Shown: piece after piece, positions 12,981-52,500 of the stretch
Position numbering within the stretch: position 1 is the first letter of the stretch
How the letters are laid out: every line of letters starts with the position of its first letter
Source: a virus
Direction: 5' to 3' (one strand)
UHGV virus genome: UHGV-0197997
DNA: 52,500 nucleotides
The notes under the pieces: generated by a model
The model's database searches: none
Told to the model about the DNA's origin: nothing
The model's input: the letters and a program-made list of their open reading frames with translations, nothing else
Translations under genes and position numbers: made by a program

Positions 12981-13034
12981 AAATCCCCCCTTTTCTTTAG
13001 TAATAGGGAATCCTAAACCGTCCTTGGTTTTTTG

Positions 13035-13340: not shown

Positions 13341-13342
13341 TT

Positions 13343-13747: not shown

Positions 13748-13777
13748 TAAGTTTATCGCCGGTTTCCCGGCGCTCCA

Positions 13778-14482: not shown

Positions 14483-14496
14483 TGCAGCCTCCATAA

Positions 14497-14518
14497 ATGA
14501 AAAAACCGCCTGTGGCGG
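14497..14518 (-). terminator. Hairpin plus T-run just upstream of major tail gene (possible attenuator)
   Basis: Minus-strand CCGCC-ACA-GGCGG followed by TTTTTT. Confidence 0.4.
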
Positions 14519-14538
14519 TCGGGTTTGATTGGTTTCAG

Positions 14539-15667: not shown

Positions 15668-15677
15668 GATCCCCCCG

Positions 15678-16016
15678 TTAAACGCCCATATCTATGCGAT
15701 AGGGATTAAGCAACCAACGCGCAGGACCAGGGATATCATGGCCCAGGTCATCCCCACGGTTTTCATACAGCCAGCCCAGAATAAGAAGAACCGCACTCTG
15801 AATGGAGGGCGTGATAATAATTGGGCGATCGCCGGCGCCTTCATTTTCAATTGCGTTATCCAGAGCGGACTGGTCTGCATAAAAACGACGGTTAAGAAAC
15901 TGCATAGCAGTATCCTCTGCAGCGGCCAGATACCCCTCCACCATCGTTTTATCGATTTCATCATCCAGCCTGAGATGTTCCATGGCTGTTTCAGTGTTGA
16001 TTACCGTCATAACCAT
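15678..16016 (-). CDS. gp6-like head-tail connector protein
   Basis: N-terminal MEHLRLDDEID...YLAAAE pattern typical of gp6-like connector proteins; position after capsid gene. Confidence 0.55.
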   Translation of the reverse strand: MVMTVINTETAMEHLRLDDEIDKTMVEGYLAAAEDTAMQFLNRRFYADQSALDNAIENEGAGDRPIIITPSIQSAVLLILGWLYENRGDDLGHDIPGPARWLLNPYRIDMGV

Positions 16017-16270
16017 TACCCTTTGGTTTCGGGGGCGCGGTTCATTTTGTTATCAGGGACTTCACCAACTATCGTCACCAGCCCATTACCTTTGAGCTCG
16101 GCAGCACGTAAGCGAGAAACGTGAAAAGGATCATCGGCTGGCGTTCTGAAAATATCGCCATCCATAAACCGCCGGACAGGTTGAACCTGAATAGTCCCGG
16201 AATCGGGTACAGGTGATAAGTTGTCGTCAACTGATGCAGTAGATTCAGCCACATTTTTCCTGGCCATCAT
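16016..16270 (-). CDS. Hypothetical small head-module protein
   Basis: ORF between major capsid and connector genes. Confidence 0.35.
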   Translation of the reverse strand: MMARKNVAESTASVDDNLSPVPDSGTIQVQPVRRFMDGDIFRTPADDPFHVSRLRAAELKGNGLVTIVGEVPDNKMNRAPETKG

Positions 16271-16312
16271 GCTCTCCTCAAAAAGAGAGGGCCGCTAAGC
16301 GGCCCTTAATTG

Positions 16313-17533: not shown

Positions 17534-17542
17534 ATAAATCCC

Positions 17543-18229
17543 TTAGAGAATTTTGGGGAGTGAAAACTGGCTCAGTTGCTGGCGCATCGCCGCAATAGCC
17601 GCTTTGGTTTCGCCGTCTTCGCCCCCGGACTCACTCCGGTCAAGCAGATAGGACAGCCCGCGGGAGGCGACCGCAGCGGACTGACTTTTCGAGAAACCTG
17701 CCTCTCGCAGGAACTTCTCAAATTCAGGTAAAGAAGGAAGGTCACCGTGTGACAGCTTCGACTTAATGACGTCAATACGCGCATCATCGTTGGCCGGCAC
17801 GGTAACGATGGAGATTTCAACCAGATCGAGCTTCGTTAATGTGCGGATCCGGGTTTTCTCATCGTAATTCGATTCCCGTACGTAATAGCCAATGGAAAGG
17901 CCTGTAATGGCACGGGTTTTCATGCCCCGCCAGGCGGTTTTAGCGTAAGCAGCGTCGTCAAGCCACAAAGCCCCTTCACCAAAAAGCCCATGTTTATCTT
18001 CTTTCAGGGTAGAGATATCCCAGTTCCCTATGGGCTCGCCGGTGCGATGCTGCCAGAGAACAGGGAACGTTCTCCCCTTCGCCCGTGTTTCCTCGATACT
18101 TTCGAGGAATGCGCCCGGCGCCACGACTTCGTTGTAGCTATCCACCACATCGAAGACAGAACCGTACCCAGAAAAAAGGCCGTCATCGTTGACGGCCTTA
18201 ATATCGAAGTCGAATGCCTTTACTTTCAT
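17543..18229 (-). CDS. Prohead protease, HK97 family
   Basis: Between portal and capsid genes; start at ATG (MKVKAFDF) overlapping portal stop as ATGA. Confidence 0.8.
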   Translation of the reverse strand: MKVKAFDFDIKAVNDDGLFSGYGSVFDVVDSYNEVVAPGAFLESIEETRAKGRTFPVLWQHRTGEPIGNWDISTLKEDKHGLFGEGALWLDDAAYAKTAWRGMKTRAITGLSIGYYVRESNYDEKTRIRTLTKLDLVEISIVTVPANDDARIDVIKSKLSHGDLPSLPEFEKFLREAGFSKSQSAAVASRGLSYLLDRSESGGEDGETKAAIAAMRQQLSQFSLPKIL

Positions 18230-26522: not shown

Positions 26523-26915
26523 ATGAACAATCTGGAAAAATTACGCGCTGTTGGGGAAGCGGTATATGGGGATAAGTGGCAGTCTGCACTTTCACGCGCC
26601 CTCGGTATTTCTGACCGTACCGTGAGGAATTTCGTGTCTGGGAAGTCCCAACCGGAAAACTTATCAAATCGCTTACTCGAGGCGATGGAGCTTGAAATGG
26701 GGAAAATCAAAGCGGCCATCGACATCATCAATAGCGACAAGTTGCGTGGTGACGACATCTCTATTGAGATGATTACTCAAATTGCAGACCGCTACGAATA
26801 CTGTGATGAACAAGATCGTAAGGCTGCGATAGACGCAATGAACAATGCAGTTTACGAGGAAACATTCCTCTCCGACCTGGAAGCAATAGCGATCAGACTC
26901 GCAATACGCCATTAA
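26523..26915 (+). CDS. HTH DNA-binding protein
   Basis: HTH-like segment QSALSRALGISDRTVRNFVSG; follows small acidic ORF; hairpin 26920-26943 after stop. Confidence 0.55.
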   Translation: MNNLEKLRAVGEAVYGDKWQSALSRALGISDRTVRNFVSGKSQPENLSNRLLEAMELEMGKIKAAIDIINSDKLRGDDISIEMITQIADRYEYCDEQDRKAAIDAMNNAVYEETFLSDLEAIAIRLAIRH

Positions 26916-26930
26916 TGTTAAGCCCACGCG

Positions 26931-27161
26931 TTAACGTGGGCTTAAATTGGGGTGTGGTGCTGAGTGCCTCTCAGTAAGCCTTTGGTCAGCAACCATGACT
27001 TGCGGTCCGAGTGAATCATAAGGATTCCATTTAAGCTGTTTCCGCCCCTCCGCACAGGGGGATTCACCACGCCAATAATTTATAGCTACTTCATTCCCAT
27101 CGTCAATAGCAAGCACTCTGTCAAAGGCACCCGAAGATGCCTTTTGCACAGTGTTATTCAC
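26931..27161 (-). CDS. Hypothetical protein, 76 aa
   Basis: ORF downstream of small membrane ORF; stop lies in hairpin loop; weak support. Confidence 0.3.
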   Translation of the reverse strand: MNNTVQKASSGAFDRVLAIDDGNEVAINYWRGESPCAEGRKQLKWNPYDSLGPQVMVADQRLTERHSAPHPNLSPR

Positions 27162-28038: not shown

Positions 28039-28114
28039 TGGTGCTGGTTGACGGAATCGAACCACCGACATCCTACTTACAAGGCAGGTGCTCTACCTAC
28101 TGAGCTAAACCAGC
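28039..28114 (-). tRNA. tRNA-Thr (anticodon UGU), phage-encoded
   Basis: Hand-folded cloverleaf: acceptor GCTGGTT/AACCAGC, D-arm GCTC-AGTAGGTA-GAGC, anticodon loop CTTGTAA, T-loop TTCGATT, encoded CCA; T-stem needs two wobble pairs; 5' end overlaps methyltransferase stop by 10 nt. Confidence 0.55.
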
Positions 28115-38053: not shown

Positions 38054-38961
38054 CCCCGGAACCCCGCTGGAATTGTGTTTTGTACCGGACTTACTGAATT
38101 GATATCTCGTGGCTTGTTTTTGTCCCAAGCCTCTCTTGGCGGCCGGCCTTTAGCATCCCAGCGGATAGCGCTTTGCAGATAGCCTTCGAATTTTTTTGGG
38201 CCAAAGAGCGTCTCAGGTCGCATGTACTGGTATTGCTCGTCGTTTTCATGCCAGTGCTCATGCTTCAGGTCGATAACCAGTTTCAGGTCGCTGACGGCAT
38301 GTCCATCGCGTAGACGGGCACGGATGTTTTCCAGGGAGGATTTTGATTTCTGGAAACGGGAACCGCTGACCTGGTTCAGGTGGGCCAGAACTTCGATCGC
38401 ATGATCGGTAATAACCACTTCAGGATCCGTCTTATCGTCGGGATCCGCAGGAACCCGACAAGAAGGTTTTTTAGATGACGGATCTAATGACGGATCTAAT
38501 GACGGATCGCCTTCAACCATTGAGGGGTCCCCCGTCAATATTTGAGGTGGTGCAGACCCATTATTTGAGGCCTCAGATTTTGACCCTTCAAATTTTGAAC
38601 CCTCAATTTCTGAGGCCTCAAATTTTGATTGCTCCTTAGGAGGTGAATAGAAAAGTTTTGCCTCTGCAGCTGCACGCTCCAGCATGTCTACGTTGAGTTT
38701 GTAGACGTTCGAGTTATTCTTCCCACCAACCCGGCGCTCTTGTTTCTTCAGCCACCCTTTTGCTTCCAGCTTTTTAATAGCACTGCGTACGGTGTTCTCA
38801 CTCTTAGCACCGATCTGGCGCTGAATTGTCGTTACCGCGGGCCAGGACACGCCTTCATCGTTACTGAAGTCAGCCAGGCGGGCCATGACCGCTATTTCGG
38901 ATATGATCAGGCCTTTGAAAGCACATGCTTCCCAAACCAGACCGTGCAATTTACTGCTCAT
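38050..38961 (-). CDS. Replication initiator (O-like; N-terminal winged helix, conserved phage C-terminal domain)
   Basis: C-terminal LNQVSGSRFQ...IRARLRDGH...LKLVIDLKHEHW...YMRPETLFGPKKFEGY pattern; low-complexity repeat linker; SD GAGGG. Confidence 0.7.
   Translation of the reverse strand: MSSKLHGLVWEACAFKGLIISEIAVMARLADFSNDEGVSWPAVTTIQRQIGAKSENTVRSAIKKLEAKGWLKKQERRVGGKNNSNVYKLNVDMLERAAAEAKLFYSPPKEQSKFEASEIEGSKFEGSKSEASNNGSAPPQILTGDPSMVEGDPSLDPSLDPSSKKPSCRVPADPDDKTDPEVVITDHAIEVLAHLNQVSGSRFQKSKSSLENIRARLRDGHAVSDLKLVIDLKHEHWHENDEQYQYMRPETLFGPKKFEGYLQSAIRWDAKGRPPREAWDKNKPRDINSVSPVQNTIPAGFRG
38468..38630. repeat. Iteron-like direct/palindromic repeats inside replication gene (candidate ori)
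   Basis: 3 x 12-nt tandem repeat at 38468-38505 and ~5 copies of a TCAAA(A)TTTGA(G/A)G-like motif at ~21-bp spacing (38540-38630). Confidence 0.45.
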
Positions 38962-39130
38962 GGCTGCCCTCTACTTCCCTGAACTTACGTTTGAACTGAT
39001 CGAGTGGGCTAAAGCACTCATGGGGATACCCTTCTCGCAGGAAGATGACACGCTGCGTTTCTGGCTCCCAGCGGATGACCTTGACGGGCTTACCGTAGTG
39101 GTCTTTGAACTTCCGGTTAACTTCTCGCAT
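38951..39130 (-). CDS. Small ORF upstream of replication initiator (frame uncertain)
   Basis: 59-codon ORF with AAGG upstream; alternative frame ORF 38971-39318 in track; cannot decide without homology. Confidence 0.25.
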   Translation of the reverse strand: MREVNRKFKDHYGKPVKVIRWEPETQRVIFLREGYPHECFSPLDQFKRKFREVEGSHEQ

Positions 39131-39302
39131 AACGCCTTAGCCCTCCGGTTAAAGACCCCCACAACTCCACGCGCCCTACTGTGGTTACATTCGACCCACT
39201 TTCCGCCTACCATGCGCTCATACCGAAACGACGAAACACCCGGGACCGGGTACATCCGTAGTTGCGGTAAGTGAAGATTTACGATTAAATTGCTCATGCG
39301 GA

Positions 39303-39854
39303 TCATTTCTCCATACACGTTGATTTATCTGCCACGACGCCCGGAGCTGCACACTCGCGGGCGTCACTCTTTTCTGGCTGACAGAAGACGCGGAAAAGCA
39401 ACGTCAGATGTTCCTGCCATTTCGCCATCACCTGATAGCTGTTCTCCTCAATCTGCTCGCGTTCGGCCTGGTCAATAACACCGTCAGCTGTAGCTTTACG
39501 GAGATATTGCGAGTGCTTTCCGATCCACTCGATAGACTCCATCAGGCGATGGTTAATATCGGCGTTGTCCACATCATCAATATCTGCCAGCGGTACAAAG
39601 ACCCCGTTCGAGTGGCGCGCTATCGCATTGGCGATATGATTTGACCCACCAGCCCGCTGCAGGACCATTGCCCATCCGAGAGGAAAAATCTGATCTCCAT
39701 CGGCACGTAAGCGGTTAAACAATGCGTTTTCAGTAACACCCAGCCATTCCGCTGCTTCTACATAGCCGCCGTCCAAATCAGTGATCGTTTTTTTAATCGC
39801 AGCTACCAGCCAAGCCGGCTGCTTATCAACTTTCCATTCTGGTTCTATACCCAC
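39303..39854 (-). CDS. Regulatory protein at cII position (CP76/YdaT-like by memory)
   Basis: First gene after cro-like gene in early-right operon. Confidence 0.4.
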   Translation of the reverse strand: MGIEPEWKVDKQPAWLVAAIKKTITDLDGGYVEAAEWLGVTENALFNRLRADGDQIFPLGWAMVLQRAGGSNHIANAIARHSNGVFVPLADIDDVDNADINHRLMESIEWIGKHSQYLRKATADGVIDQAEREQIEENSYQVMAKWQEHLTLLFRVFCQPEKSDARECAAPGVVADKSTCMEK

Positions 39855-39882
39855 GGCTTACCCCCTACCTCTGTGGTTTCTG

Positions 39883-40113
39883 TTACACCCCTGAAGCGCT
39901 ATCGTTCTGATTAGCACCCTCGCCATAGAGCAACCAATGAGGATCGCAATGCAGGGCTGAAGATAATTCAATGATGTAACGGGGCCTCTTTGTTAAACCC
40001 GCCTCGATCGCTTGTAATGACTGCTGGGTCATTCCGACCAATTCAGCCAATTGCGCTTGTGAGAGATTCATCTCTTCACGTTTATTCTTTAATCTTTGAG
40101 AAATTGATTCCAT
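39883..40113 (-). CDS. cro: Cro-like HTH-XRE repressor
   Basis: 76 aa HTH (LSQAQLAELVGMTQQSLQAIE); divergent from cI across operator region; SD GGAGG. Confidence 0.75.
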   Translation of the reverse strand: MESISQRLKNKREEMNLSQAQLAELVGMTQQSLQAIEAGLTKRPRYIIELSSALHCDPHWLLYGEGANQNDSASGV

Positions 40114-40122
40114 AACACCTCC

Positions 40123-40181
40123 ACAGTTTTATCTGTATTTTTGAACAGATACTACTGTTTGTCAATCACAGTTTAAACTGT
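40123..40181. promoter_or_regulatory. OR-like operator cluster: three ACAG-N6-CTGT palindromes
   Basis: Sites at 40123-40136, 40145-40158, 40168-40181 (22-23 bp spacing) between cro and cI. Confidence 0.65.
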
Positions 40182-40210
40182 GACCATGAGGCCATGGGAA
40201 TGGAGGAGCT

Positions 40211-40843
40211 ATGAGCCTTGCAGAACGCGTAAAGCAAAAAAGAATCGAACTTGGTCTTACTCAAGAGCAAGCCGCTGAAAAGGCAGGAATAAGGCAACAA
40301 TCATGGGCCAGCATTGAAGATGGAAAAACTAAAAAGCCTCGCAACATTGTAGGAATAAGCAAAGCACTTAAGTGCGACCCAACATGGTTGATGAACGGTG
40401 GGCCTTTTATGGCTCTTGCCGATGTGAATTCAAGGAAAGTACCTTTGATCAGTTACGTCCAGGCTGGGGCATTAGCAGAAAAACACCCAATTGATGCATT
40501 TGATGGTAGCTTCGAATACATCATGACAGACCTTGATATTTCTGAGTTTACTTTTGCACTAAGGATAGAAGGTGATTCAATGGAGCCTGACTTTAAAGAA
40601 GGCGACATTATCATTGTCGATCCAGAGTTAGAGCCCGTTCCGGGCGAGTTTGTTGTTGCTAAAAATGGTGATAATGAGGCAACTTTTAAAAAGTACCGTC
40701 CTACATTTACCGATATTTCAGGCCGCCAGCAATATGAACTGGTCCCCCTTAATGACGACTACCCCACCATCAATAGCTCTGAATGCCCGTTGAAAATTAT
40801 CGGCGTAATGGTCGAACATAGAATTTACAGGCGAAAAAGGTAA
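40211..40843 (+). CDS. cI: CI-like repressor (HTH-XRE plus S24 LexA-type peptidase domain)
   Basis: N-terminal HTH; C-terminal GDSMEP motif and downstream Lys region typical of S24 autopeptidases. Confidence 0.85.
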   Translation: MSLAERVKQKRIELGLTQEQAAEKAGIRQQSWASIEDGKTKKPRNIVGISKALKCDPTWLMNGGPFMALADVNSRKVPLISYVQAGALAEKHPIDAFDGSFEYIMTDLDISEFTFALRIEGDSMEPDFKEGDIIIVDPELEPVPGEFVVAKNGDNEATFKKYRPTFTDISGRQQYELVPLNDDYPTINSSECPLKIIGVMVEHRIYRRKR

Positions 40844-40858
40844 ATCCTTCCTCACATG

Positions 40859-40881
40859 AACCGGCTAGCGCCGGTTTTTTT
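40859..40881 (+). terminator. Rho-independent terminator after cI
   Basis: CCGGC-TAGC-GCCGG followed by TTTTTTT. Confidence 0.7.
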
Positions 40882-40942
40882 ACGTCTTTAGTTTCATAAA
40901 AAACAATAAATTACAGTTTTTCAAGTAAACACCCCCACTCAA

Positions 40943-40990
40943 TACAGTTTTGACTGTTGACGAATTAACAGTTTTATCTGTATTATTAAT
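40943..40990 (+). promoter_or_regulatory. OL/pL-like operator-promoter region
   Basis: Two further ACAG-N6-CTGT sites (40943-40956, 40967-40980) flanking TTGACG with AT-rich -10 candidates. Confidence 0.5.
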
Positions 40991-41093
40991 CCATCAACAG
41001 CGAACAGGCAGGACGCCCACGAAGTAGCCGCCCGGGGCATACGAAGGCCGGGATGATTCGCAGGTATGAAAAAAGCGCCCCGTAGGACGCTTA

Positions 41094-41106
41094 GCTCTTT
41101 AACAAT
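41094..41106 (+). promoter_or_regulatory. boxA-like element in early-left leader
   Basis: GCTCTTTAACAAT matches rrn-type boxA core as recalled; lies in GC-rich leader downstream of pL-like promoter. Confidence 0.35.
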
Positions 41107-41145
41107 CTGGATGCCCCAACACGTTAACCAACTGAATGGAGGCCT

Positions 41146-41341
41146 TATGAAGGCAACTGAACCAAAAATCATTGCTCCTAGCAGCACCGAGGAAGAGGTC
41201 ATCTCCTGGATGGAACGGAAAATTAGTGCATCACATCGGCTTAAAACCGCAATCGCCGAAAGAGAAGCTCTTAAGCAGTCAATCGAAGTGGTCGATCAAC
41301 TCATTGACGAACTCACCATCGCTGCGGCTTTGGAATTGTGA
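41146..41341 (+). CDS. Hypothetical small protein, 65 aa (first early-left gene)
   Basis: ATG preceded by GGAGG; track start at 41066 lacks an SD and would cover the boxA-like element; no Arg-rich N-like motif. Confidence 0.45.
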
Positions 41342-41759
41342 GATACAGATCTGGATCCCACTCTTCCTCTCGTATTTCAGCGAAGTAGTGTTCAGCTCGG
41401 TCAGCTAAATAATTTTTGAGAACACGTTGAGCCAGATCCGGAAGGTTTTCAAATTTTAATTCTTCCTGAAGGAGGAATACGGACTCCTGCAGGGTCAAAG
41501 CCTTTATTTCAGATAATGGCCATTTGTACTTTTGAAGGATCAAGTGCAACAAAGCGAGTTTTCCGGGTAACGGGCTCCATAAGGTTCCGTGTTTTTCACG
41601 ATGTCGCTCAAGTAGGACTTCAAGTGCAAATACGAGTGAAGCACGATTTTTGACCTGGGAATAGCCGGGTTCAGTAACTGAACCAAACACTGCTATACCG
41701 TGTAGTTCGGAAAGATTATTAAGAATTTTCTGGAAAAATTCTTCGCTAATAACACTCAT
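41313..41759 (-). CDS. Hypothetical protein (antisense insert in early-left region)
   Basis: ATG preceded by AGAGGTG; opposite orientation to surrounding operon; direct repeats CCCCAACAAC upstream. Confidence 0.5.
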   Translation of the reverse strand: MSVISEEFFQKILNNLSELHGIAVFGSVTEPGYSQVKNRASLVFALEVLLERHREKHGTLWSPLPGKLALLHLILQKYKWPLSEIKALTLQESVFLLQEELKFENLPDLAQRVLKNYLADRAEHYFAEIREEEWDPDLYLTIPKPQRW

Positions 41760-43208
41760 AGCAACACCTCTTCGTTGTTGGGGATATCCAGATTAACCGA
41801 ATCCTTGTTGTTGGGGAATAACCAGGATCCACCTCGCCTGATGTGGTGAAAAGCAGGCACATAAAGTGGCAGGTGTCTTCGGGAGGGGTAACAGAGGTGC
41901 GGCCTGATTAACCGCAACTCATAGTAAAATTCCTACAACTGGTGGCGATACCCAAGCCAGGAATGCCGAAAACCAGTAGGAGTGTTAAGGACAAGGGCTC
42001 ATCACCACCTTAGCACCCCGCCCGAAGATACCTGAACGAACATGGCGAAAGCCGACAGCGTTGAAGGCGATTTTCTCGGTTTGCGCGCTAAACAATAGCG
42101 GGGGTGAAATCGGGGCGGAGAAGCAGAATCCGCGATGTCGGGACTTGATACTTCCGGCCATACCAACAAGCCGAATGATCGCGTAACGGTCCTTTGCATC
42201 TGCCCCGGCGAGGTGGCGCCGCCGGACCGGGGTAGATGAATCGTACCCAACATGAAAGCGCATTCCATCTTCCATCGGTCGTGGGGACTGGTTTGTCACT
42301 GAAGGAGTGCGCTTCCAGTTGTGAACGGCAATATTCGCAACCGTTGTATGGCACATGCAGCGTCAGCGGCCTGAGAGTTCCCTTTATCCATGCGCTCACA
42401 GGACAACCGGAAATGTGCAAGCTAAGTGTTTCAGGCACGACGTGCGCCCCACCAGCGCGGCGAAAAGGTGTGACACCCGGGAAGAGTTCGTTCGGGACAC
42501 AACAGGAAAGAGCACTGAAGATGCCAGGAAACGCCCTACCGCCAGGCAGACAGACGGGTTATCCCGCAAGGGGTGGCGGCAGTGCTCTTACCGTTGTGGT
42601 GTAGCTCAAATGGATAGAGCGCCCCTCGTATGGGGAGTTGAGCACTAACCAATGTTCGCAACACAGGTTATCTCATGCGGTCCGGCCGGACGTTATGCGG
42701 GTTCGACTCCCGCCACCACAGCGCACAACGATGAGGGCTCTGACGAGCAAGGCACAGAGTCTGGTTCGATTCCAGACGCCAGGATAGTTCGATATCTGGT
42801 GATGGGCAGGGAAAAGGTCCGTTCGATTCGGACACCGGCAGTGCCCTCTTCGTTGTGGTAATTGCGGCTATGCGCACCCAGCGAGCCAAACCGTTCAATG
42901 AATGCGTTTCTGGGCAGTGTACGCCTCCGGTTATGGCTTAACCCGGCAGGTGGAGGCACCACCGCCACAACCTAGTTAACTGTGCTGTGTGTAGTCTTGG
43001 CGGTTATCCAGTTTTCCACTACCCAAAGGAGGAAGAGGATAACGTTCTGATGGGTAACCGCCCTTTTTACACAAGACAAAAGAGCATCACCGGGCGACGG
43101 GCTCATAACCCAATCCACCCGGGCGGCTGCTAACCGCAGATGCTCTTCTGTGTTGTGTATGGAGAAAATTCCGGCGGTTGCAGCCGCCTTTCATGAGGGT
43201 AAAAAACC
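41760..43208. other. GC-rich ~1.45 kb region without credible coding ORFs, containing tRNA-like fragments (candidate structured RNA or decayed tRNA locus)
   Basis: Only mutually overlapping ORFs in many frames with Arg/Cys-rich translations and no SD-start contexts; tRNA-like motifs at 42595-42841. Confidence 0.5.
42595..42721 (+). ncRNA. Split tRNA-like element (acceptor and D-arm, ~75-nt insert, T-arm and acceptor)
   Basis: 5' TGTGGTG-TA-GCTC-AAATGGATA-GAGC; 3' GCGGG-TTCGACT-CCCGC-CACCACA-G with fully complementary acceptor strands; intervening region lacks a canonical anticodon arm. Confidence 0.35.
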
Positions 43209-43580
43209 ATGAGTAATGATCGCATGACAGTCGTGCCCGATTTCCTGGGCGAGCTCGATGCCGGCGTGTTCATGAATAAGATTGCGGCGGCTCTCAATAC
43301 CACCGCGCTCGGCGTTCTGAACAACGGCAATAAAGGCAAGGTAGTCCTCACCTTTGATTTTGAGCGTATGGGCAACTCCGTTGAAGAGAAGCGCGTCAAG
43401 ATTAAGCATCGCCTGAATTACAGCACCCCTACCCCACGCGGCAAAGCGTCCGAAGAGGACACCACCGAAACACCTATGTGGGTCAACAAAGGCGGCAAGC
43501 TCACCATCCTGCAGGAAGATCAGGGTCAGCTGTTCGGCATCACCGGCACGGTGGATGGAAAGCTTAAAGCGGCTCAGTGA
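43209..43580 (+). CDS. Hypothetical early protein, 123 aa
   Basis: ATG preceded by GAGGGT; first gene after non-coding block. Confidence 0.5.
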   Translation: MSNDRMTVVPDFLGELDAGVFMNKIAAALNTTALGVLNNGNKGKVVLTFDFERMGNSVEEKRVKIKHRLNYSTPTPRGKASEEDTTETPMWVNKGGKLTILQEDQGQLFGITGTVDGKLKAAQ

Positions 43581-43636
43581 TCCGCACCAACAAATTCACT
43601 GATACCACTTCGCTCATCAGTTAATAAGGAATTTCT

Positions 43637-44464
43637 ATGTCTCAGTTAGACAGCGGTACTTTTCAGCAGGTTAAAGAACTGGTGCTTTCCGGTTATCACC
43701 TGAACGATATCCCCGGCCTGGCCTGCCCGACGACTATTTTGCCGGATGGCACTACCGTAGCAAGCCTTGAACGTTTCGCCCTGGAACGTTTCCGTTTCCG
43801 TGGGGCAATGGACACGACCAGCATTGATGATTTCGTTCGCTATTCCGTCGCTTATGCCCAGGAAGAAGAAAAAGCACGTTGCTTTATCGATGCAGACAAC
43901 ATGCTGGCGCGTTCCATCTTCAATATCGGCACGCTTGATAACCCAGGCCACGCTGATAACGTAGCTTCGATCAAACTGAAAAAAACCGCCCCTTTCTGGG
44001 CATTGCTCGCAATCAATGGCGATCGCCTGAGCCAGAAACAAATTGCTGAATGGCTCGAAGACTGGAGCGATTTCTTGCTCGCTTTCGATGCTGAAGGGCA
44101 AACCATGGATATCTCCAAAGCTGCACAGGCTGTTCGTCGGGTGACTATCCAGCAGACTAATCAGGCCGACCACGAAGATAGTGATTTCGCTGGTAGAAAA
44201 TCGCTGATGCAAAGTGTAGAAGCGAGCAGCAAAGATGTAATGCCGGTCGCTTTCGAATTTAAATGCATCCCCTACGAAGGCCTGGGCGAACGCCGCTTTA
44301 GTCTTCGTAACAGCCTACTTAAAAGTGGCGAACCCGTATTTGTGCTGCGGATTGTTCAACTCGAAGCGCAGGAAGAAGAAATGGCTAATGAATTCCGCGA
44401 TTTGTTGATTGCTCAGTTCGACGACAAGCCGGTGGAAACCTTTATCGGCAACTTCAAAGCCTAA
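43637..44464 (+). CDS. Hypothetical early protein (DUF2303/YfdQ-like by memory)
   Basis: ATG preceded by AAGGA; 275 aa. Confidence 0.4.
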   Translation: MSQLDSGTFQQVKELVLSGYHLNDIPGLACPTTILPDGTTVASLERFALERFRFRGAMDTTSIDDFVRYSVAYAQEEEKARCFIDADNMLARSIFNIGTLDNPGHADNVASIKLKKTAPFWALLAINGDRLSQKQIAEWLEDWSDFLLAFDAEGQTMDISKAAQAVRRVTIQQTNQADHEDSDFAGRKSLMQSVEASSKDVMPVAFEFKCIPYEGLGERRFSLRNSLLKSGEPVFVLRIVQLEAQEEEMANEFRDLLIAQFDDKPVETFIGNFKA

Positions 44465-44605
44465 TTCAAAGCCTTATTGCTCAGCCTTAAATACCCGCAG
44501 CTGCGGGTATTTATTGAAGCGTAATCCTGTAATTAATCGCCACCTGGCGAGGGATTCCTACACCCAAAAATCAGCGCTGTGCAGGCGTAAAGTATGGAGA
44601 AAAAA

Positions 44606-45133
44606 ATGAGCTTTATTCAAACCTTTGCAGGTAAACATTTTAACTATCTCGATATCCAGCAAGATGCCATCGAGATAGAAGATATCGCTAATGCCCTCTC
44701 GAATATCTGCCGTTTCGCTGGCCACCTGCCTGAGTTTTATAGCGTTGGGCAGCACAGTGTTTTAACGAGCTATCTGGTGCCTCAGGAATTTGCGCTTGAA
44801 GCGCTGCTGCATGACGCCGCCGAGGCATATTTGCAGGATATCCCTGCCCCATTGAAACGCCTCCTTCCTGACTACCGCGCCATTGAAGATCAGGTTGATG
44901 CAGCTATTCGCCAAAAATTCGGCCTGCCAGCTGAGCAGCACCCGACCGTTAAATATGCCGACCTGGTGATGCTGGCCAGCGAACGTCGCGACTTTGAGAT
45001 CGACGACGGCACCCACTGGCCGATGCTCGACGGCATTATTCCTACCGACCAGTTTGTGATTAACCCCGTCCGCCCGGGCCAGTCTTACGGCATGTTCATG
45101 AATCGCTTTAACCAGCTAATGGAGCGGCGTTAA
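44606..45133 (+). CDS. HD-domain phosphohydrolase (YfdR-like 5'-deoxynucleotidase)
   Basis: HD signature context (GQHSV ... LLHDAAEAYLQD); start at ATG after SD GGAG. Confidence 0.55.
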   Translation: MSFIQTFAGKHFNYLDIQQDAIEIEDIANALSNICRFAGHLPEFYSVGQHSVLTSYLVPQEFALEALLHDAAEAYLQDIPAPLKRLLPDYRAIEDQVDAAIRQKFGLPAEQHPTVKYADLVMLASERRDFEIDDGTHWPMLDGIIPTDQFVINPVRPGQSYGMFMNRFNQLMERR

Positions 45134-45333
45134 TGACACATATGAAAGTGAAAGAGTTAGTTGCTGCAGCTAATGCTGCGGCACCTGACTTTCCACCAGC
45201 AGCAGCCCAATTAATGCGTGATCTCGCGTCAAGGCTGGATGTGACCTTCGTTGCCCTTACCGAGGCGATGGATCAGAACACAGCTATGGCTGCTTTGCTA
45301 TCAAACCAGAGCGGAGCTTGCAGCAATGGCTAA
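45133..45333 (+). CDS. Hypothetical small protein, 66 aa
   Basis: ATG overlapping upstream stop (TAATG). Confidence 0.4.
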   Translation: MTHMKVKELVAAANAAAPDFPPAAAQLMRDLASRLDVTFVALTEAMDQNTAMAALLSNQSGACSNG

Positions 45334-46111
45334 AAATTCAAAAGACGTATACGGAGCCAGTGGCAAGACGAACGTTCTGACGTTCGAGCCCGAAAAGCTG
45401 CACCTGGTAACCGATAAGACCCATCCGCTCTACGATGAGCGTATTCACCTGCCGATCGACGAAGGGATGGTACTGAATATCAAGGAGCTGGGTGTTCTGG
45501 AACCGATTGCTGTCTGGAAAGACCCTGAAAAGGGACTTACCTGTGTAGTTGCTGGTCGTCAGCGCGTTCGCCATACCCTGGAGGCAAATAAACTCCTTCT
45601 GAAAGAAGGCAAAGACCCACTGCTTGTTCCAGGCGTCGTTAAGCGCGGGTCAGCAAATCAGATGGCTAAATATATGGTCAGCGAAAACGAAATTCGCCGA
45701 CCTGACACACCGCTTGGGCGGGCTAAAAAAATGTCAGATGCTCTGGATCGCGGTCTTGATGAGGACGACATTGCGGTGTTGTTTGGCTGCAGCGTTCAGA
45801 CCGTGCGCGCCACCCTGTCTCTGCTTGATGCCACTCAGGCCGTTCGGGATGCGGTCGAATCTGGCACTGTCACCGTCTCTCAGGCGCGCCAGCTGGCATC
45901 AATGAAGCCAGAAGCACAGCGGGAGAAGGTAGCAGAAATCGAAGCGGCGACCGCCGGCACTACCGGACACGAAAAAACGCGCCGGCAGCGCCAGGTTCTT
46001 GGCGACGCAAAACCCCGCCTGAAAACTCGTAAAGACATAACTAAAGCACTGGAATCAGCCGAAGGAGAATTTGCCGCGGCTCTCCGCTGGGTGCTTGGGG
46101 AGAGCGTATGA
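45326..46111 (+). CDS. ParB-like nuclease domain protein
   Basis: N-terminal ParB/Srx-like region with GRQRV motif context; C-terminal HTH-like; start at MAKNSKD. Confidence 0.45.
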   Translation: MAKNSKDVYGASGKTNVLTFEPEKLHLVTDKTHPLYDERIHLPIDEGMVLNIKELGVLEPIAVWKDPEKGLTCVVAGRQRVRHTLEANKLLLKEGKDPLLVPGVVKRGSANQMAKYMVSENEIRRPDTPLGRAKKMSDALDRGLDEDDIAVLFGCSVQTVRATLSLLDATQAVRDAVESGTVTVSQARQLASMKPEAQREKVAEIEAATAGTTGHEKTRRQRQVLGDAKPRLKTRKDITKALESAEGEFAAALRWVLGESV

Positions 46112-46242
46112 ACTCTGATCCCGGACATTACAGCAAATATACGCTGCGTCGGTTTGCCGTCCTGGTCGATGTTATCTGCTGGGTAGCTGTAGTCGTAGCG
46201 GCTTGGGTCATCTGCATGATTATTGAGTGGTGGACAGCATGA
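46108..46242 (+). CDS. Small membrane peptide, 44 aa, translationally coupled
   Basis: ATGA overlaps at both ends with neighbouring genes; hydrophobic FAVLVDVICWVAVVVAAWVICMII. Confidence 0.35.
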   Translation: MNSDPGHYSKYTLRRFAVLVDVICWVAVVVAAWVICMIIEWWTA

Positions 46243-46607
46243 ACGTATACGAAATGGAAGGTTTTCTCCGTGGTAAATGCTTACCTAGTGATATCAAGGT
46301 TAATGAATCAAACGCTGAATACCTGGTGAGAAAACTCAATGCAGCAAGCGAATTAGAAGACGAAGTAACGGCTCTGGTCGCAACTCTTGAGAAGTGCCGG
46401 GAGATTACCAACTGCCCGGCTGGCGTAGACCTGCAGGACCATCTGCGACAGTTGGTGGCGGATTCAGTGCAGCAGCGGATTTCTGAGTTAGAGTCCCCCA
46501 CCTTAACATTCGAAGTCACTGTAGAGCCGTTCACCTGCCCTCGATGTGGTACCACAACAACCCATCCAGAAGGGTGGCACTATTGCCATAAGCGGGAGGG
46601 TGAGTAG
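46239..46607 (+). CDS. Hypothetical protein with C-terminal zinc-ribbon-like CPRCG...CH
   Basis: ATG start; Cys pair motifs. Confidence 0.45.
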   Translation: MNVYEMEGFLRGKCLPSDIKVNESNAEYLVRKLNAASELEDEVTALVATLEKCREITNCPAGVDLQDHLRQLVADSVQQRISELESPTLTFEVTVEPFTCPRCGTTTTHPEGWHYCHKREGE

Positions 46608-46835
46608 ATGGCCGTTACAAAAATGCAGTGCGTTAGCTCAGCCAATCCTGACTGGTTTACGCCAAGCGCTGTGTACGACTCAGAGCCACGCGGTGTTGAT
46701 ACCTGCATTTGCGGTGACAACCTCGTATCAGACCTGAACAAAGAGGACTGGTACGAAATGAGCCAGCGTATTGATGGTCTGTGGTTCTTAATCGGTTTTG
46801 AGCAGTCAATTTTGTTCCGGGGAGCCAACCAATGA
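46608..46835 (+). CDS. Hypothetical protein
   Basis: ATG preceded by GGGAGGG. Confidence 0.45.
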   Translation: MAVTKMQCVSSANPDWFTPSAVYDSEPRGVDTCICGDNLVSDLNKEDWYEMSQRIDGLWFLIGFEQSILFRGANQ

Positions 46836-47260
46836 CCAGCAAATTAACCAGAGAGCAACTTCACGAACGCGCCCGCGAAAATGTCAAAGCGTTGAAAATG
46901 GCGTCACGCCAGCATGCATTCGAAAGCGCGCGCGAAGAAATATTGGCTGACCTGCAGCTTGCCGAACTGGCGCTGGCCGCAATGGACAGCGAGCCGGTGG
47001 CGTATACCGACGAGCGCAACTTGGGCTACATCGACCGAGGGAGGGAGACGGCGTATCTGTGGGGAAAACAGAACTCAGAGCCAGCAGATGTTGCGCTCTA
47101 TCGTCACGCGCAGAAGCCGGTAGTGAACGAGGATTTATACAAACTCGCTAATCACATAGCCAGCAGCAAAAGCGGATTGCCTGATGAATGGCAGGACTGG
47201 GCCGAGGAACTGGAGACTGATATTCGCCGTGCCGCCATGCTCAACGGAGGTAAGTCATGA
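46832..47260 (+). CDS. Hypothetical protein
   Basis: Overlapping start/stop with neighbours in early-left operon. Confidence 0.45.
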   Translation: MTSKLTREQLHERARENVKALKMASRQHAFESAREEILADLQLAELALAAMDSEPVAYTDERNLGYIDRGRETAYLWGKQNSEPADVALYRHAQKPVVNEDLYKLANHIASSKSGLPDEWQDWAEELETDIRRAAMLNGGKS

Positions 47261-47640
47261 AAGACAAACTGCTTATAATCAGGAACCAGTTGAAAATGGG
47301 GCACAGGCTGTCATTCGCAGAAGCAATGCTCCTGCAGCGTGCCATCGACGTGTTTGTTTGCCAGGCTGGCAACTCTCCGGTAATTCCGGATGGTTACGTG
47401 ATGGTGCCGATGAGGTTAACCGCTGAGAACGGTGCGAAAGCAGCGCTTCTCGGGGAATTCAACCTTGAATACTCGCTGACCTGCCATGAATGTTTTGGTG
47501 AAGGGTGCGACGACTGCAGCGGCGAGGGAACATGGACAAATACTATCCCGATTGATTGGACAACCATCAAAGAAATCTGGGCTAAAGGTGTTGAGCATTT
47601 CGCAGCCGCCCTACCAGCACCGAAACAGGAGAACATTTAA
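47257..47640 (+). CDS. Hypothetical protein with Cys-rich motif (CHECFGEGCDDCSGEG)
   Basis: Overlapping start/stop; zinc-finger-like Cys/His cluster. Confidence 0.45.
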   Translation: MKDKLLIIRNQLKMGHRLSFAEAMLLQRAIDVFVCQAGNSPVIPDGYVMVPMRLTAENGAKAALLGEFNLEYSLTCHECFGEGCDDCSGEGTWTNTIPIDWTTIKEIWAKGVEHFAAALPAPKQENI

Positions 47641-47653
47641 CGTGAACCATTTA

Positions 47654-48211
47654 ATGATCGACATCGAAACTATGGGAAATAAGCCTGCTGCGCCAATTGT
47701 CGCGATCGGCGCTGTGTTCTTCGACCCAAAAAGCGGTGAGCTGGGATCCGAGTTCTATGTGGCCGTCGACCTCGCTAGCGCCATGGATCAGGGGGCAACT
47801 CCTGACGGTGACACAATTCTCTGGTGGCTGAAGCAATCAGCTGAGGCCAGGGCCGCGATTTGTACCGGCGACACTCTTCACATCGATGAAGCACTTTATG
47901 AACTGAGTGACTTCATCAGTCGAAACTCTGAAAACCCGCGTTATCTGAAAGTCTGGGGCAACGGTGCCAACTTTGATAATGTCATTTTGCGAACTGCGTA
48001 TGAACGTGCGGGCCGTATTTGCCCTTGGCAGTTCTGGAATGATAGCGACGTGCGCACCATGGTGCTGCTTGGTCTCCAGTTGGGTTTCGATCCGAAGCGC
48101 GATATGCCGTTCGATGGTGTGGCCCACAATGCGCTGGCTGATGCTCGCCACCAGGTGAATTACGTGTCAGCGATTTGGCAGCGCCTACTGCCAACCAACA
48201 CCGAAGAATAA
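47654..48211 (+). CDS. 3'-5' exonuclease (DEDD-type)
   Basis: Exo I-like motif MIDIETMG near N-terminus and downstream acidic/His motifs (HNALADA). Confidence 0.6.
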   Translation: MIDIETMGNKPAAPIVAIGAVFFDPKSGELGSEFYVAVDLASAMDQGATPDGDTILWWLKQSAEARAAICTGDTLHIDEALYELSDFISRNSENPRYLKVWGNGANFDNVILRTAYERAGRICPWQFWNDSDVRTMVLLGLQLGFDPKRDMPFDGVAHNALADARHQVNYVSAIWQRLLPTNTEE

Positions 48212-48254
48212 ACCAAAACGCCCGGGTGCAGCCGGGCTGTATGGAGGACCTGTC

Positions 48255-48464
48255 ATGGCAAAACTTATGAAAGCGAGTCAATGGGGCAAACGCGAATTTG
48301 CTAAAGACTCTATTCCTGATAATCGAACGATTAAACGTTGGGTTGAAAATGGACTCCTTACGGGAAAGATCGTCGACGGATCCGTTTTCGTCTTCGAGTC
48401 TGAAAAATGGGGTGTCGACTCAATGGTTAACCACACAGTTCGACAGCTAATAAATGAAGGTTGA
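48255..48464 (+). CDS. xis: Excisionase-like small DNA-binding protein
   Basis: 69 aa basic protein immediately upstream of and overlapping integrase start; SD GGAGG. Confidence 0.5.
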   Translation: MAKLMKASQWGKREFAKDSIPDNRTIKRWVENGLLTGKIVDGSVFVFESEKWGVDSMVNHTVRQLINEG

Positions 48465-48466
48465 CC

Positions 48467-49645
48467 ATGGCAGCAAGACCAAGAAAAAGAGAATATCGTC
48501 ATCTTCCTGAATACCTGATCTTTGATAAGGATCGAGGTGTATACAAATTCACACTCATAACGGGAAAGAAAAAGAATCTTGGTAAAGACCGAGCTATGGC
48601 GATAGCTATAGCTCGCGAATATAACCTAAGAATGAGGCCCTTTAATGCACCATCGGTTGAATTATTAATCCGAGACTCCGGGGGGATCTCTGGGGAAGCT
48701 AAACCATTTGCTGAACATGTAGATCATATTATGGCCCGAGCGATTGAAAATGAGCGCCCATCTCAAAATACTCTTGATGACTGGAGTAACGACGCACTTC
48801 GGGTGAAAGAATTCTTCGTCGGTATGCCAGCCTGCGATATCGAGCTGGAGCACGTGAACGCCTATATAAACCATTATCATGCTGATGCTTCAGCAAACGT
48901 ACAAAACAGGAAGGTCAGCTTCCTTAAGAAACTATTCTCCTATGCTGTCGATGAATCATTGATGTTTGATAACCCTGCTACACGTAAAAAAATGCGAAGG
49001 ACTGAGGAGAAGAAACGGCAGCGCCTGTCACTCGATAACTTTAAAGCCATCAGACTCGCCGCCGAACCATGGCTGCGTACCGCTATGGATTTAGCATTGC
49101 AGACGACGCATGCACGCCTCGAGGTGTCACGAATCCGATATTCAATCAGTGAGCCAAAAGATGGAGTCTGCGGGTGCGTATGGCTGGCACAGCCGGAGAA
49201 TGGGATATATGGCACGCTATACATCCACCGCCAGAAAGTACAGAAGAAAGAGGCCTCGCATGTTGCAATCCCGATCGGGGAAGAATTGAAACGGATTATT
49301 GACGAAAGCCGCGATAACGTAGCTAGCCCGTTTGTCGTTCATCGAATTCCTGAGCGGCAGGTTAAACGCAGCAAAGAGGTTTCACACCCGACACAGGTTG
49401 CGCCGGATTATCTGAGCCGGTCCTTTTCCGCGGTGCGAGACAAGCTAGGTTTATGCGACAAACTGGCAATGGATGAAAGACCAACCTTTCACGAAATTCG
49501 AGCGTTGGCCGCTCACCTCTTCGATCAGCAGGGTATAGATCCACAAGGTCGAATGGCGCATAGCGATGCAAAGTCCACCAAGATTTATACTCAAAATCAT
49601 ATAGACTGGGTCGTCGTCCCTCATGGTGAAATCAAAGCCTGTTAG
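48467..49645 (+). CDS. int: Tyrosine integrase (lambda Int family)
   Basis: C-terminal catalytic region with HEIRALAAH ... KSTKIY(Tyr); N-terminal arm-binding-like domain; start at ATG after SD GAAGG. Confidence 0.85.
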   Translation: MAARPRKREYRHLPEYLIFDKDRGVYKFTLITGKKKNLGKDRAMAIAIAREYNLRMRPFNAPSVELLIRDSGGISGEAKPFAEHVDHIMARAIENERPSQNTLDDWSNDALRVKEFFVGMPACDIELEHVNAYINHYHADASANVQNRKVSFLKKLFSYAVDESLMFDNPATRKKMRRTEEKKRQRLSLDNFKAIRLAAEPWLRTAMDLALQTTHARLEVSRIRYSISEPKDGVCGCVWLAQPENGIYGTLYIHRQKVQKKEASHVAIPIGEELKRIIDESRDNVASPFVVHRIPERQVKRSKEVSHPTQVAPDYLSRSFSAVRDKLGLCDKLAMDERPTFHEIRALAAHLFDQQGIDPQGRMAHSDAKSTKIYTQNHIDWVVVPHGEIKAC

Positions 49646-49769
49646 CAGAAAAAAACATCTTAATTATTAGTACAGACAAGATAACAACTTTACAGCACAA
49701 AGTTAGATATAATTAGAGAGTCTACTTTGTGCCGTACTAGTATTACTCACAAAGAGAATAAAAAATCAA

Positions 49770-51083
49770 TTATTCAAATTCATCCAGCGTCCCGTTAACT
49801 TCTCCTTGTTCTACAGACCCCAGACCTAATCTACCAATTAATACAGGGCATTTCATTGTTATAGAAACACTCATATCTCTCCCAGGGACTCCAGCCTCTT
49901 TATAATGTTCTCCGCTTGCATTAGCAGAAAGCTCCGCATAAAATCCGCTATCAAATCTATAATTTTCTAGTGTGATATCCTCTACCGAATCAAAAATTGT
50001 ATCGGATATCGCAATCGCTCCTGATACTCCATCACCATCAAAAATATCGTTGGGGTTATTTTCAAAAGATTCTTTGCATATTTCTGCCAAGCTGTCTCCT
50101 GATATTAATCTAAAAGGAGTATCTTCAAATAACATATCAAGATGACTGAAAATGAAATCAGCTGTAAAATCTTCATTATCCGAATTTTCATCTAACACTA
50201 TCTGGTGCAGTTCCTTTGCAAGTTCTTCATCATAATATATATACTCCACCTTCCCTAAAGTTTCATTATTGAAATTTTTATCGTTAAGTAGTGAATCAAA
50301 ATCGGCATAACCAAACAGTACTGAAACAATTGAACTTAAGGATTTAATAGAAATATATACATCATCATCCTTAAAGCTATCTGCTACTATTTGCATAAGA
50401 AAAAACGCAGATGGGAATCTATTAGAGGCAAGAGTGGCTCTTACTTTAGCACCCTCACTCTCAAATCGCAGCATTTCTAATTCTGTTTTCTTCTCTTTTT
50501 TAACAAGTTCCAGCTTTGATATTCTTTCATTATTTTCTGCTTCTTGCGTTTTAAACAGCTGCTCTTGAGTTTTAAGTGTCGACTCTGCCTTTTTAGCCTC
50601 TAAACGAGAAGTTCTCAGTGTCATATGGTCTAATATCAAATTGCGTTTATCTATATCATGTTGGACTAATTGCTCCAAAAATTTTTTATTAGGATTAGCT
50701 TTAAGCTTTTCCATATTCAACTTTTTCTGATGATCAATTTTTATCAACTCTTCCGAAATTGCTTGTTTATGAAGCTTCTCCTTAGCCCAGTGTTGTAGAA
50801 ATTTAATAAATAATGAAAACCAAGGAAAAAGGAAAAGATAAAAAGATGCAATAAGTAATGGGATAACAAAAAGTTGATTCCAACCAATCAATGGAGTTTT
50901 TTCTAAATAATTAGTAAAACCACTTACCCGTTCAGCTACCTTACCTTCTCCCCAGAAAAGTAATGCAAGTTGATTCCAATTACATACTAACCAAGAACAT
51001 ATAAAAGTACCAACGAAGGGATCATTGATTCTTGTTCTTGCATTTCCTGCTATTGAAGAGAAGAATTCTTCTAAAAATTTCAT
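49770..51083 (-). CDS. AT-rich cargo protein: N-terminal membrane helices, central Lys/Glu-rich coiled coil, acidic C-terminal domain
   Basis: Located between int and attR core; visibly low GC relative to the phage backbone; hydrophobic segments LFVIPLLIASFYLFLFPWFSLFI; start taken at MKFLEEFF. Confidence 0.55.
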   Translation of the reverse strand: MKFLEEFFSSIAGNARTRINDPFVGTFICSWLVCNWNQLALLFWGEGKVAERVSGFTNYLEKTPLIGWNQLFVIPLLIASFYLFLFPWFSLFIKFLQHWAKEKLHKQAISEELIKIDHQKKLNMEKLKANPNKKFLEQLVQHDIDKRNLILDHMTLRTSRLEAKKAESTLKTQEQLFKTQEAENNERISKLELVKKEKKTELEMLRFESEGAKVRATLASNRFPSAFFLMQIVADSFKDDDVYISIKSLSSIVSVLFGYADFDSLLNDKNFNNETLGKVEYIYYDEELAKELHQIVLDENSDNEDFTADFIFSHLDMLFEDTPFRLISGDSLAEICKESFENNPNDIFDGDGVSGAIAISDTIFDSVEDITLENYRFDSGFYAELSANASGEHYKEAGVPGRDMSVSITMKCPVLIGRLGLGSVEQGEVNGTLDEFE

Positions 51084-51556
51084 TTTTCTATCGTTAACCA
51101 AGGCTAATTTACCATCAATTTAACAGCATATACTGTAAAACCGCAATAGAATAACCCGTTGTCTATACAACATACTTGTTGTCAATGGGGACTATACTGC
51201 TCCAATCCACAGAGTACTATCCGAAGACACAAGTGTTCAAAAACCTTTCTATTCAACTCATATGCTTTTAGTCAGTTCGAATGAGTTGTAGCTTGGAATG
51301 CTTCACTCGATCATGTTAGGCCGCTAGGAAATCGAGCAGAACAAACAATCAACAAAAATGTTTGTCCGATATAATCCACTGTGCTGAAAAGGTTATGACC
51401 AGACTTAATAAATTAATCCAAATGGCATGGGGAGAAACTACCCCCTAACTCATTGATGTATATAGAGCATATTTTGCTAAAAAAGCACTGTTTGTTTATA
51501 CATACAAACATCCCTCACCACCAGCAATGGCGCGGCTTACAGCGGTTTATAAGCGG

Positions 51557-51605
51557 CGACATGGGGTGTCGGGGGTCGGAGGTTCAAATCCTCTCGTGCC
51601 GACCA
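51557..51605 (+). other. attR-like core: 3' portion of tRNA-Pro(GGG) (anticodon loop to CCA), no 5' half
   Basis: CGACATGGGGTGTCGGGGGTCGGAGGTTCAAATCCTCTCGTGCCGACCA matches the recalled 3' part of enterobacterial proL; upstream sequence cannot form acceptor/D-arm. Confidence 0.6.
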
Positions 51606-51650
51606 AATCATTCACCGGTAAGTTATCTTAACAACCGGTAACCCTTAAGA

Positions 51651-51682
51651 ACCCGCATCCTCTCTGAGCCTGCGGGTTTTTT
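51651..51682 (+). terminator. Rho-independent terminator (native tRNA terminator)
   Basis: ACCCGCA ... TGCGGGT inverted repeat followed by TTTTTT. Confidence 0.6.
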
Positions 51683-51836
51683 AATGCCCGAATCACCCCG
51701 TCGACACGGTCACGGTCCGCGGTCGAATCCATCCCCGTTTCCGCACTGCTGATGAAGAAACTCCGACCTTACTGATTGTAAATCGAAGAATAGCTTCTAT
51801 TATTCGTCGTACTTGCCTGACACCGGAACAATTAAT

Positions 51837-52500
51837 ATGAGAGTTAATGGACTTACGAAGGGATTTTTTATCCTGATTTTGCTGATGGTCAGCCTCGCCT
51901 TTTTTAATGTTCTTTCCCCCTATTATTCAGCCATACTGTGGGCCGCGATTCTGTCGGTCATCTTCAACCCGGTGAAGAACAAGTTGCGTACTCGCCTCGG
52001 TGAGCGCAATGGCCTGGCCTCGTTGTTGACCGTCGTGATTATCTGCCTGATTGTTTTCACGCCGCTGGCGATCATCATTTCATCGCTGGCGATTGAGCTC
52101 AACCTGGTTTACACCCAGCTTCAGCATAACGACACCCAGTTTCCTGTGGTGGTGGCCAATCTGTTTGCCCATCTGCCTGAGTGGGCCAGAAGCTTTCTCT
52201 CCGAACATAACCTTGACAGCGCAGAGCAGATTCAGAAACAGCTCTCTGACGCCGCTCTGAAAGGCGGGCAATATCTGGCCGGCAGCGCGTTCCTGATTGG
52301 TAAAGGGACTTTCGGCTTTACCGTTAGCTTCGGCATCATGCTGTATCTGCTGTTTTTCCTGCTCAAAGATGGCCCCTATCTGGTCATGCTCATCCTTGAG
52401 TCCCTGCCGCTGTCTAACTACGTTAAGCAGCATCTGTTTGCCAAATTTGCCGCCGTATCACGGGCAACCGTAAAAGGTACCGCCGCCGTCGCCCTCGCCC
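51837..52500 (+). CDS. AI-2E family transporter-like membrane protein (host gene, 3'-truncated by window end)
   Basis: ATG at 51837; multi-pass hydrophobic protein open to the window end; first non-phage-like gene. Confidence 0.5.
   Translation, partial: MRVNGLTKGFFILILLMVSLAFFNVLSPYYSAILWAAILSVIFNPVKNKLRTRLGERNGLASLLTVVIICLIVFTPLAIIISSLAIELNLVYTQLQHNDTQFPVVVANLFAHLPEWARSFLSEHNLDSAEQIQKQLSDAALKGGQYLAGSAFLIGKGTFGFTVSFGIMLYLLFFLLKDGPYLVMLILESLPLSNYVKQHLFAKFAAVSRATVKGTAAVALA

Follow-up and report, generated by a model that had tools for sequence, protein, structure and literature searches.

A UHGV virus genome of 52,500 nucleotides (UHGV-0197997; this whole stretch is referred to below as the window) carries close to its right end a fragment that looks like the 3′ part of a proline tRNA gene, followed by a terminator and by a gene of bacterial type. 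We asked what this fragment is and where the viral DNA ends. We conclude that the segment is almost certainly the attR formed when a lambda-like prophage, 51.5 kb long or longer, inserted in proL, the gene for tRNA-Pro(GGG), on a chromosome of the Raoultella ornithinolytica type. From left to right, the boundary region contains the following features:

51102-51559, plus strand: P arm, the phage side of attR, of which 51427-51559 is homologous to the P arm of the Flotzy/Eeyore attP
51560-51605, plus strand: att core, 46 bp that reproduce proL exactly, anticodon loop through CCA
51614-51639, plus strand: native downstream hairpin of proL, from RNA folding
51647-51681 (stem), plus strand: intrinsic terminator with a U run to 51682, from RNA folding
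51837-52500, plus strand: 5′ part of a host gene for an AI-2E family transporter (Pfam PF01594, 67.8 bits), which continues past the window end

The core, 51560-51605, reads CATGGGGTGTCGGGGGTCGGAGGTTCAAATCCTCTCGTGCCGACCA. When it is aligned to the intact proL genes of R. ornithinolytica, R. planticola and K. pneumoniae, no position differs between 51560 (CATGGGG...) and the CCA that ends at 51605, and the intact tRNAs at loci L003, L005, L015 and others match it exactly. The sequence-only reading had proposed a 49-bp match to proL at 51557-51605, and we found 48 of these 49 positions identical, with the 46 bp from 51560 exact. Positions 51557-51558 also match the host, and 51559 is an A where all aligned hosts have a T. 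Left of 51559, the multiple alignment shows the window to be unrelated to the 5′ half of the host tRNA. A single copy of the 43-nt core GGGGTGTC...GACCA stands in the window (51563-51605); the number expected from shuffles is 0. Judged from these alignments, 51560-51605 is the host-derived, displaced 3′ part of tRNA-Pro(GGG); as in an attR, the segment equals the 3′ portion of a host tRNA gene and terminates at the CCA.

To the right, the window follows a host chromosome. Window positions 51557-52500 are 99.4% identical to 9720-10664 of L003, the unoccupied yejM-proL-AI-2E locus of R. ornithinolytica NBRC 105727, in which the tRNA-Pro(GGG) is an intact 77-nt gene; the comparison shows the window to be host sequence from 51560 rightward. 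The 9.7 kb upstream of proL in L003 have no other match anywhere in the window. The first 221 residues of the AI-2E protein are 100% identical to those of NBRC 105727, and the tRNA-to-AI-2E spacing is 232 bp in the window as in L003. At least 14 genomes of Raoultella and Klebsiella have an intact 77-nt tRNA-Pro(GGG) about 232 bp before the AI-2E gene, and yejM, proL and the AI-2E gene are contiguous in the majority of the R. ornithinolytica contigs. The Raoultella tRNA is identified as proL because yejM is the gene upstream of it; the E. coli annotation likewise places yejM beside the tRNA, in the order narP-yejO-tRNA-Pro-yejM.

The two hairpins between the core and the AI-2E gene, taken together with U6, fold with a ΔG of -27 kcal/mol (z -5.1), and none of 200 shuffles was as stable. 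A simple terminator scan missed the stem at 51647-51681 because its outer loop is above the 8-nt limit of that scan. The terminator region is near-identical to the unoccupied loci of R. ornithinolytica and R. planticola, and both hairpins are present there, so the terminator is native. The outer flank of the segment is that found downstream of the intact tRNA at the unoccupied locus, and the terminator and host-like gene noticed earlier from the letters both belong to the Raoultella chromosome.

The DNA left of 51557 is a complete lambdoid gene set, with tail fibre, J and tape measure first, then terminase and the lysis and replication genes, and exonuclease and int last, and the prophage is of a type with an HK97-type head and a lambda-type tail. 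Head genes, terminase, lysis, Q, replication regions and cI/cro-like genes follow the tape measure. The genes that matter here are these:

1219-4572, minus strand: tail fibre, 1117 aa
4650-7715: J-like protein
9051-12635: tape measure
47486-48211: exonuclease, among the last early genes before the ORF in the Xis position
48255-48464, plus strand: 69-aa ORF, candidate excisionase or directionality factor by its position alone
48467-49645, plus strand: lambda-type tyrosine integrase of 392 aa, with transcription running towards att
49770-51101, minus strand: cargo ORF, 443 aa, about 33% GC, between int and the P arm

The inner flank of the core is element DNA with an integrase, which lies 1.9 kb upstream of the tRNA fragment. 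The N-terminus of this integrase matches the arm-binding domain Arm-DNA-bind_1 (PF09003) with 28.1 bits against a cut-off of 22, and its catalytic domain scores 20.9 bits for PF00589, below the 27.1 cut-off. The protein aligns nearly full length, through the HxxR box, with the lambda integrase structures 5j0n and 1z1g (E ~3e-12), and a candidate catalytic Tyr (KIYTQ) was read by eye only. Its amino-acid identity is 77% to the Flotzy Int and 90% to the Int of a prophage in E. coli F467. At loci L074-L076 the exact integrase protein adjoins the same AI-2E gene, and at L074-L077 the same 69-aa gene is called upstream of int. The sole family match of the 69-aa ORF is a weak one to the helix-turn-helix family DUF4817 (16.2 bits, below the cut-off).

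The cargo ORF accounts for a GC content of 0.328 in the 50001-51000 bin. It has no match in Pfam, NCBIfam or PADLOC, and its PHROGs matches are all of unknown function. Flotzy is without it, and there attP lies within about 140 bp after int. Variants of 437 aa occur in the sibling prophages L074-L078, and a place between int and attP is typical of moron or defence genes. The late-regulatory/lysis region of the prophage also carries two RNA genes on the minus strand, an STnc100 sRNA at 26915-27101 (Rfam 72.3 bits) and a tRNA-Thr(TGT) gene at 28039-28114.

The phage side of the boundary has counterparts in free phages. In blastn, 51427-51607 is 82% identical to the DNA just downstream of int in the Escherichia phages Flotzy and Eeyore. 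In Flotzy the match includes an exact 50 bp, equal to window 51558-51607 with the phage-type A at 51559 (GACATGGGG in Flotzy), and this block is followed by a strong terminator of its own (ΔG -19.5, z -6.7) and then by P′-arm DNA. DNA 95% identical to the Flotzy P′ arm adjoins intact proL at L085 and L086. By its sequence and layout, the Flotzy region downstream of int is the attP of this phage, so that a free phage attP holds the same core block as the window. Since the window joins a Flotzy-type P arm to the core and then to host DNA, it is an attR by definition. The attR in the 3′ part of a tRNA gene that had been proposed from the letters is thus borne out by the proL match, the native flank, the nearby integrase and the Flotzy-like P arm. 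Within the P arm, GGGGAGAAAC/ACCCCC at ~51429-51445 may be an arm-type site; it is similar to repeats of the GGGGAAT type that relatives carry in their P′ arms.

These comparisons also bear on a different explanation, in which the fragment arose by chance or is a decayed tRNA pseudogene unrelated to site-specific integration. Just one copy is visible in the window, as a pseudogene would have it, but 46 bp are exact where none would be expected by chance, the break point falls where phage homology ends and host synteny begins, and the same block stands in a free phage attP. The Flotzy attP block, the proL alignment and the 99.4% host synteny refute this explanation, to which we assign a very small probability.

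The attR would have been produced as follows. The phage attP would carry a tRNA copy that starts at the anticodon stem-loop and runs through the CCA, with the phage's own terminator behind it, and a lambda-family tyrosine integrase would recombine this block with the identical block of the host gene. At attL, the far end to the left of the window, the host 5′ half and the phage copy would together make up an intact tRNA gene, and the original 3′ part of the host gene, with its native terminator and the AI-2E gene, would be left behind the integrase end. This matches the standard model for temperate phages that target tRNA genes: they carry the 3′ part of their target near int, which restores the gene after insertion, so that one junction holds the fused gene and the other the 3′ end that originally belonged to the bacterium (PMC1635311). 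Because the A at 51559 is phage-type, strand exchange is placed to the right of 51559, and its most probable place is within the anticodon loop or right next to it. The core-type sites could be the two arms of the anticodon stem (CGAC/GTCG), which in the phage version form a perfect inverted repeat.

The window itself contains no second copy of the core, no other tRNA-Pro and no yejM flank in its 52,500 nt. Since there is a single core copy and no yejM flank, these data are consistent with an attL and a reconstituted tRNA to the left of position 1, as the sequence-only reading had expected. The predicted attL/attR layout is present in two relatives. In the complete genome of E. coli F467 (NZ_OY754409.1), a 38-kb lambdoid prophage lies between yejO and proL-yejM and has the 46-bp core exactly twice: the int-side copy is not called as a tRNA, and the far copy is the 3′ part of an annotated intact tRNA-Pro, beside yejM and the SRAP/UmuDC end of the element. 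The 40-kb IMG/VR contig UViG_3300029450_000003 begins inside the tRNA and ends with an int (93% identical) and the core.

The int gene, the cargo ORF and the tRNA fragment could, in principle, form a separate satellite or island in tandem with the lambdoid prophage. Tandem insertion would suit a hotspot such as proL, where a P4-like integrase island or a fimbrial island is found (L098, L100) and where extra DNA separates the tRNA or attR from the AI-2E gene at four loci (L009, L013, L027 and L075). We nevertheless regard a second element as very improbable. The same integrase type is the sole integrase of the complete phages Flotzy (42.7 kb) and Eeyore, in which int has the early-gene neighbours (exonuclease, YfdP/YfdQ-like) that it also has in the window. 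The F467 element is a single lambdoid prophage bounded by both core copies, and the window has no internal core copy to mark a tandem junction.

Essentially the same prophage at the same locus is found in the metagenome scaffold ENA ERZ28649978 scaffold_23. The two are 100.000% identical over window 38467-52500 and 99.95% identical over window 4566-18098, and divergence is confined to the tail-fibre module left of 4566. The scaffold_23 element extends for at least 57 kb from attR via tail fibres, a DNA invertase, DinI and UmuDC to a SRAP gene; as read to about 70 nt past SRAP, the last gene on the P′ side, it reaches no tRNA. The tail-fibre protein, the cargo protein and int in its long-ORF version were each looked up as exact sequences, and no record matched. 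A homologue of the left-edge ORF (P0001) led to unrelated prophages and the SRAP homologues P0134 and P0139 to other loci. YejM look-ups (P0010, P0007) returned only unoccupied loci or other islands, and DNA patterns from the end of L072 had no match in viral contigs or metagenome contigs.

An SOS/translesion cassette of DinI, UmuD, UmuC and SRAP (YedK-like) lies directly beside attL at the P′-arm end of these proL prophages (L072 20053-22967; L104 38883-41236; L088). The tail-fibre module in window 1-4566 differs from L072 13144-19490 despite the 99.95-100% identity of scaffold_23 elsewhere. In siblings, convergent pairs of tail-fibre genes stand beside a gene of the Resolvase/HTH_7 type (Hin/Gin-like). 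This points to a host-range segment that can invert, and a similar layout is seen in the convergent ORFs of the window (one ending at 1091 on the plus strand, the other at 1219-4572 on the minus strand). The gene for the 1117-aa fibre has 78% DNA identity to genes of the Klebsiella jumbo-type phages BIS47 and DP.

A further question is raised by the sequence just upstream of the core, which the sequence-only reading had judged unable to form the 5′ half of a tRNA. This view needs amending: a 7-bp acceptor-like stem and a weak D-like hairpin do form, and ARAGORN calls a 78-nt tRNA-Pro(GGG) at 51528-51605. In the ARAGORN cloverleaf the acceptor strand TGGCGCG pairs 7/7, two G-U pairs included, a single nucleotide replaces U8-N9, the D stem is the A/T-rich CTTA/TAAG, and 27/43 is a G-G mismatch. 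When the upstream sequence is shuffled or random, ARAGORN makes the call in 0.2-0.85% of trials, and because the call is so rare the resemblance to a cloverleaf is not trivial.

That rarity, the 7-bp acceptor stem, the D-like arm and the true anticodon and T arms would be expected if 51528-51605 were a complete, functional tRNA-Pro(GGG) gene, as ARAGORN predicts, but several observations make this highly improbable. In a permissive search, the Rfam tRNA model (RF00005) scores 51529-51601 at 22.6 bits, short of its gathering score of 29, and three consensus positions are missing behind the acceptor stem; the scan at the gathering threshold finds no tRNA at 51528-51605. The fold energy of 51528-51605 equals that of shuffles (z 0.01). 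The 5′ part is P-arm DNA homologous to the Flotzy attP and unlike the host 5′ half at the empty site. In a comparison of 21 related P arms, pairing in the D-like helix reaches just 54%, and the shuffle control is not exceeded by any measure, covariation included. ARAGORN makes no call at the equivalent site of F467, Flotzy or L130. On the sub-threshold Rfam score, the defects at U8-N9 and 27/43, a fold no better than shuffles and a D helix that is not kept, we reject a functional gene. Because of the Rfam score and because the D arm is not maintained across the family, 51528-51605 is a pseudo-tRNA, in which a conserved P-arm motif happens to complete a cloverleaf in this lineage.

The motif in question, TGGCGCG(G), with TGGCGCG at 51528-51534, is conserved in the P arm of this integrase family and complementary to the 3′ strand of the tRNA acceptor; it recurs at the same offset in L104, L002 and L114-L181. 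TGGCGCG is identical to the host acceptor CGGCACG at 5 of 7 positions and lies 32 nt before the anticodon loop, compared with 31 in the real tRNA. Over 21 distinct P arms of the family, the acceptor-like 7-mer makes a mean of 5.9/7 pairs at the exact offset against 0.9-4.5 elsewhere. The motif may be left over from a whole tRNA gene that an ancestral attP contained, or it may be a protein-binding site. If it is a relic, the whole tRNA gene could have been captured, for example, by a small aberrant excision at attL. We consider it doubtful that the core-proximal P arm is a decayed 5′ half of tRNA-Pro, in an attP descended from a whole tRNA gene. In primary sequence, with the anticodon stem set aside, the P arm has no significant similarity to the host 5′ half (p 0.03-0.4), the acceptor-like 7-mer being the one part that stands out, and the more distant tRNA-Pro-associated phages Alteromonas P24 and Paraburkholderia IPK contain no 5′-half-like sequence.

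The closest known systems are Flotzy, Eeyore and the F467 prophage, prophages of the P22 type in tRNA genes, and lambda. Flotzy (PP925827) and Eeyore (PP925821) have a homologous integrase and P arm, and the Flotzy attP has the 50-bp core; the F467 prophage likewise shares integrase and P arm, has the 46-bp core at both ends and occupies the same target, proL beside yejM. The window prophage differs from these three in its Raoultella host, in its length (more than 51.5 kb versus 38-45 kb), in the extra cargo ORF between int and attP, in its tail-fibre modules and in a P arm that scores as a tRNA in ARAGORN, whereas theirs do not. In tRNA-gene prophages of the P22 type, a tyrosine integrase likewise adjoins attP; one prophage end regains a whole tRNA, and the other keeps the host 3′ part that was displaced, together with its native terminator. 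Here the target is proL and a 1.3-kb cargo ORF separates int from the P arm, but nothing essential differs. An att site in the anticodon loop is an arrangement known for P22 at thrW and for similar phages, and the sublocations of att sites within tRNA genes were reportedly classified by Williams in 2002 (as cited in PMC1635311). With lambda the window shares the arm-binding domain, the near-full-length alignment of Int, an int gene transcribed towards att and a small ORF before int in the Xis position. The two differ in their targets, since lambda has an intergenic attB (gal-bio) and a 15-bp core and the window prophage uses a tRNA gene with a core of ~46-50 bp.

A separate similarity was seen in Gifsy-2 (NC_010393), in which 44298-44334 matches window 51571-51607, the T-arm and acceptor part of the core, over 37 nt with 97% identity. 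The match sits near the end of the record and is possibly a tRNA-like att remnant in Gifsy-2.

In Raoultella and Klebsiella, proL is an integration hotspot. One R. ornithinolytica strain carries at the same tRNA an island with a P4-like integrase, a primase (Toprim/DUF927) and AlpA, and another has a fimbrial operon island there (island loci L098 12111-21761 and L100 11762-21761). In several species (L009, L013, L027 and L075), the AI-2E gene is separated from the tRNA or attR by an additional 1.7-2.5 kb.

An attR in a tRNA gene is textbook, already-known biology, and what the present analysis adds is correct annotation. The right boundary is now given to the base, with phage DNA up to 51559, the shared core at 51560-51605 and host DNA after it, and the host locus is identified as yejM-proL-AI-2E of R. 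ornithinolytica, together with the integrase family. For annotators, the ARAGORN tRNA-Pro call at this site is a false positive, and the real proL is expected at the other end of the element. If the relic reading of the P-arm motif were true, it would be a rarely documented trace of how a tRNA-targeting attP originates. For the Raoultella and Klebsiella chromosomes, proL adds one more tRNA hotspot.
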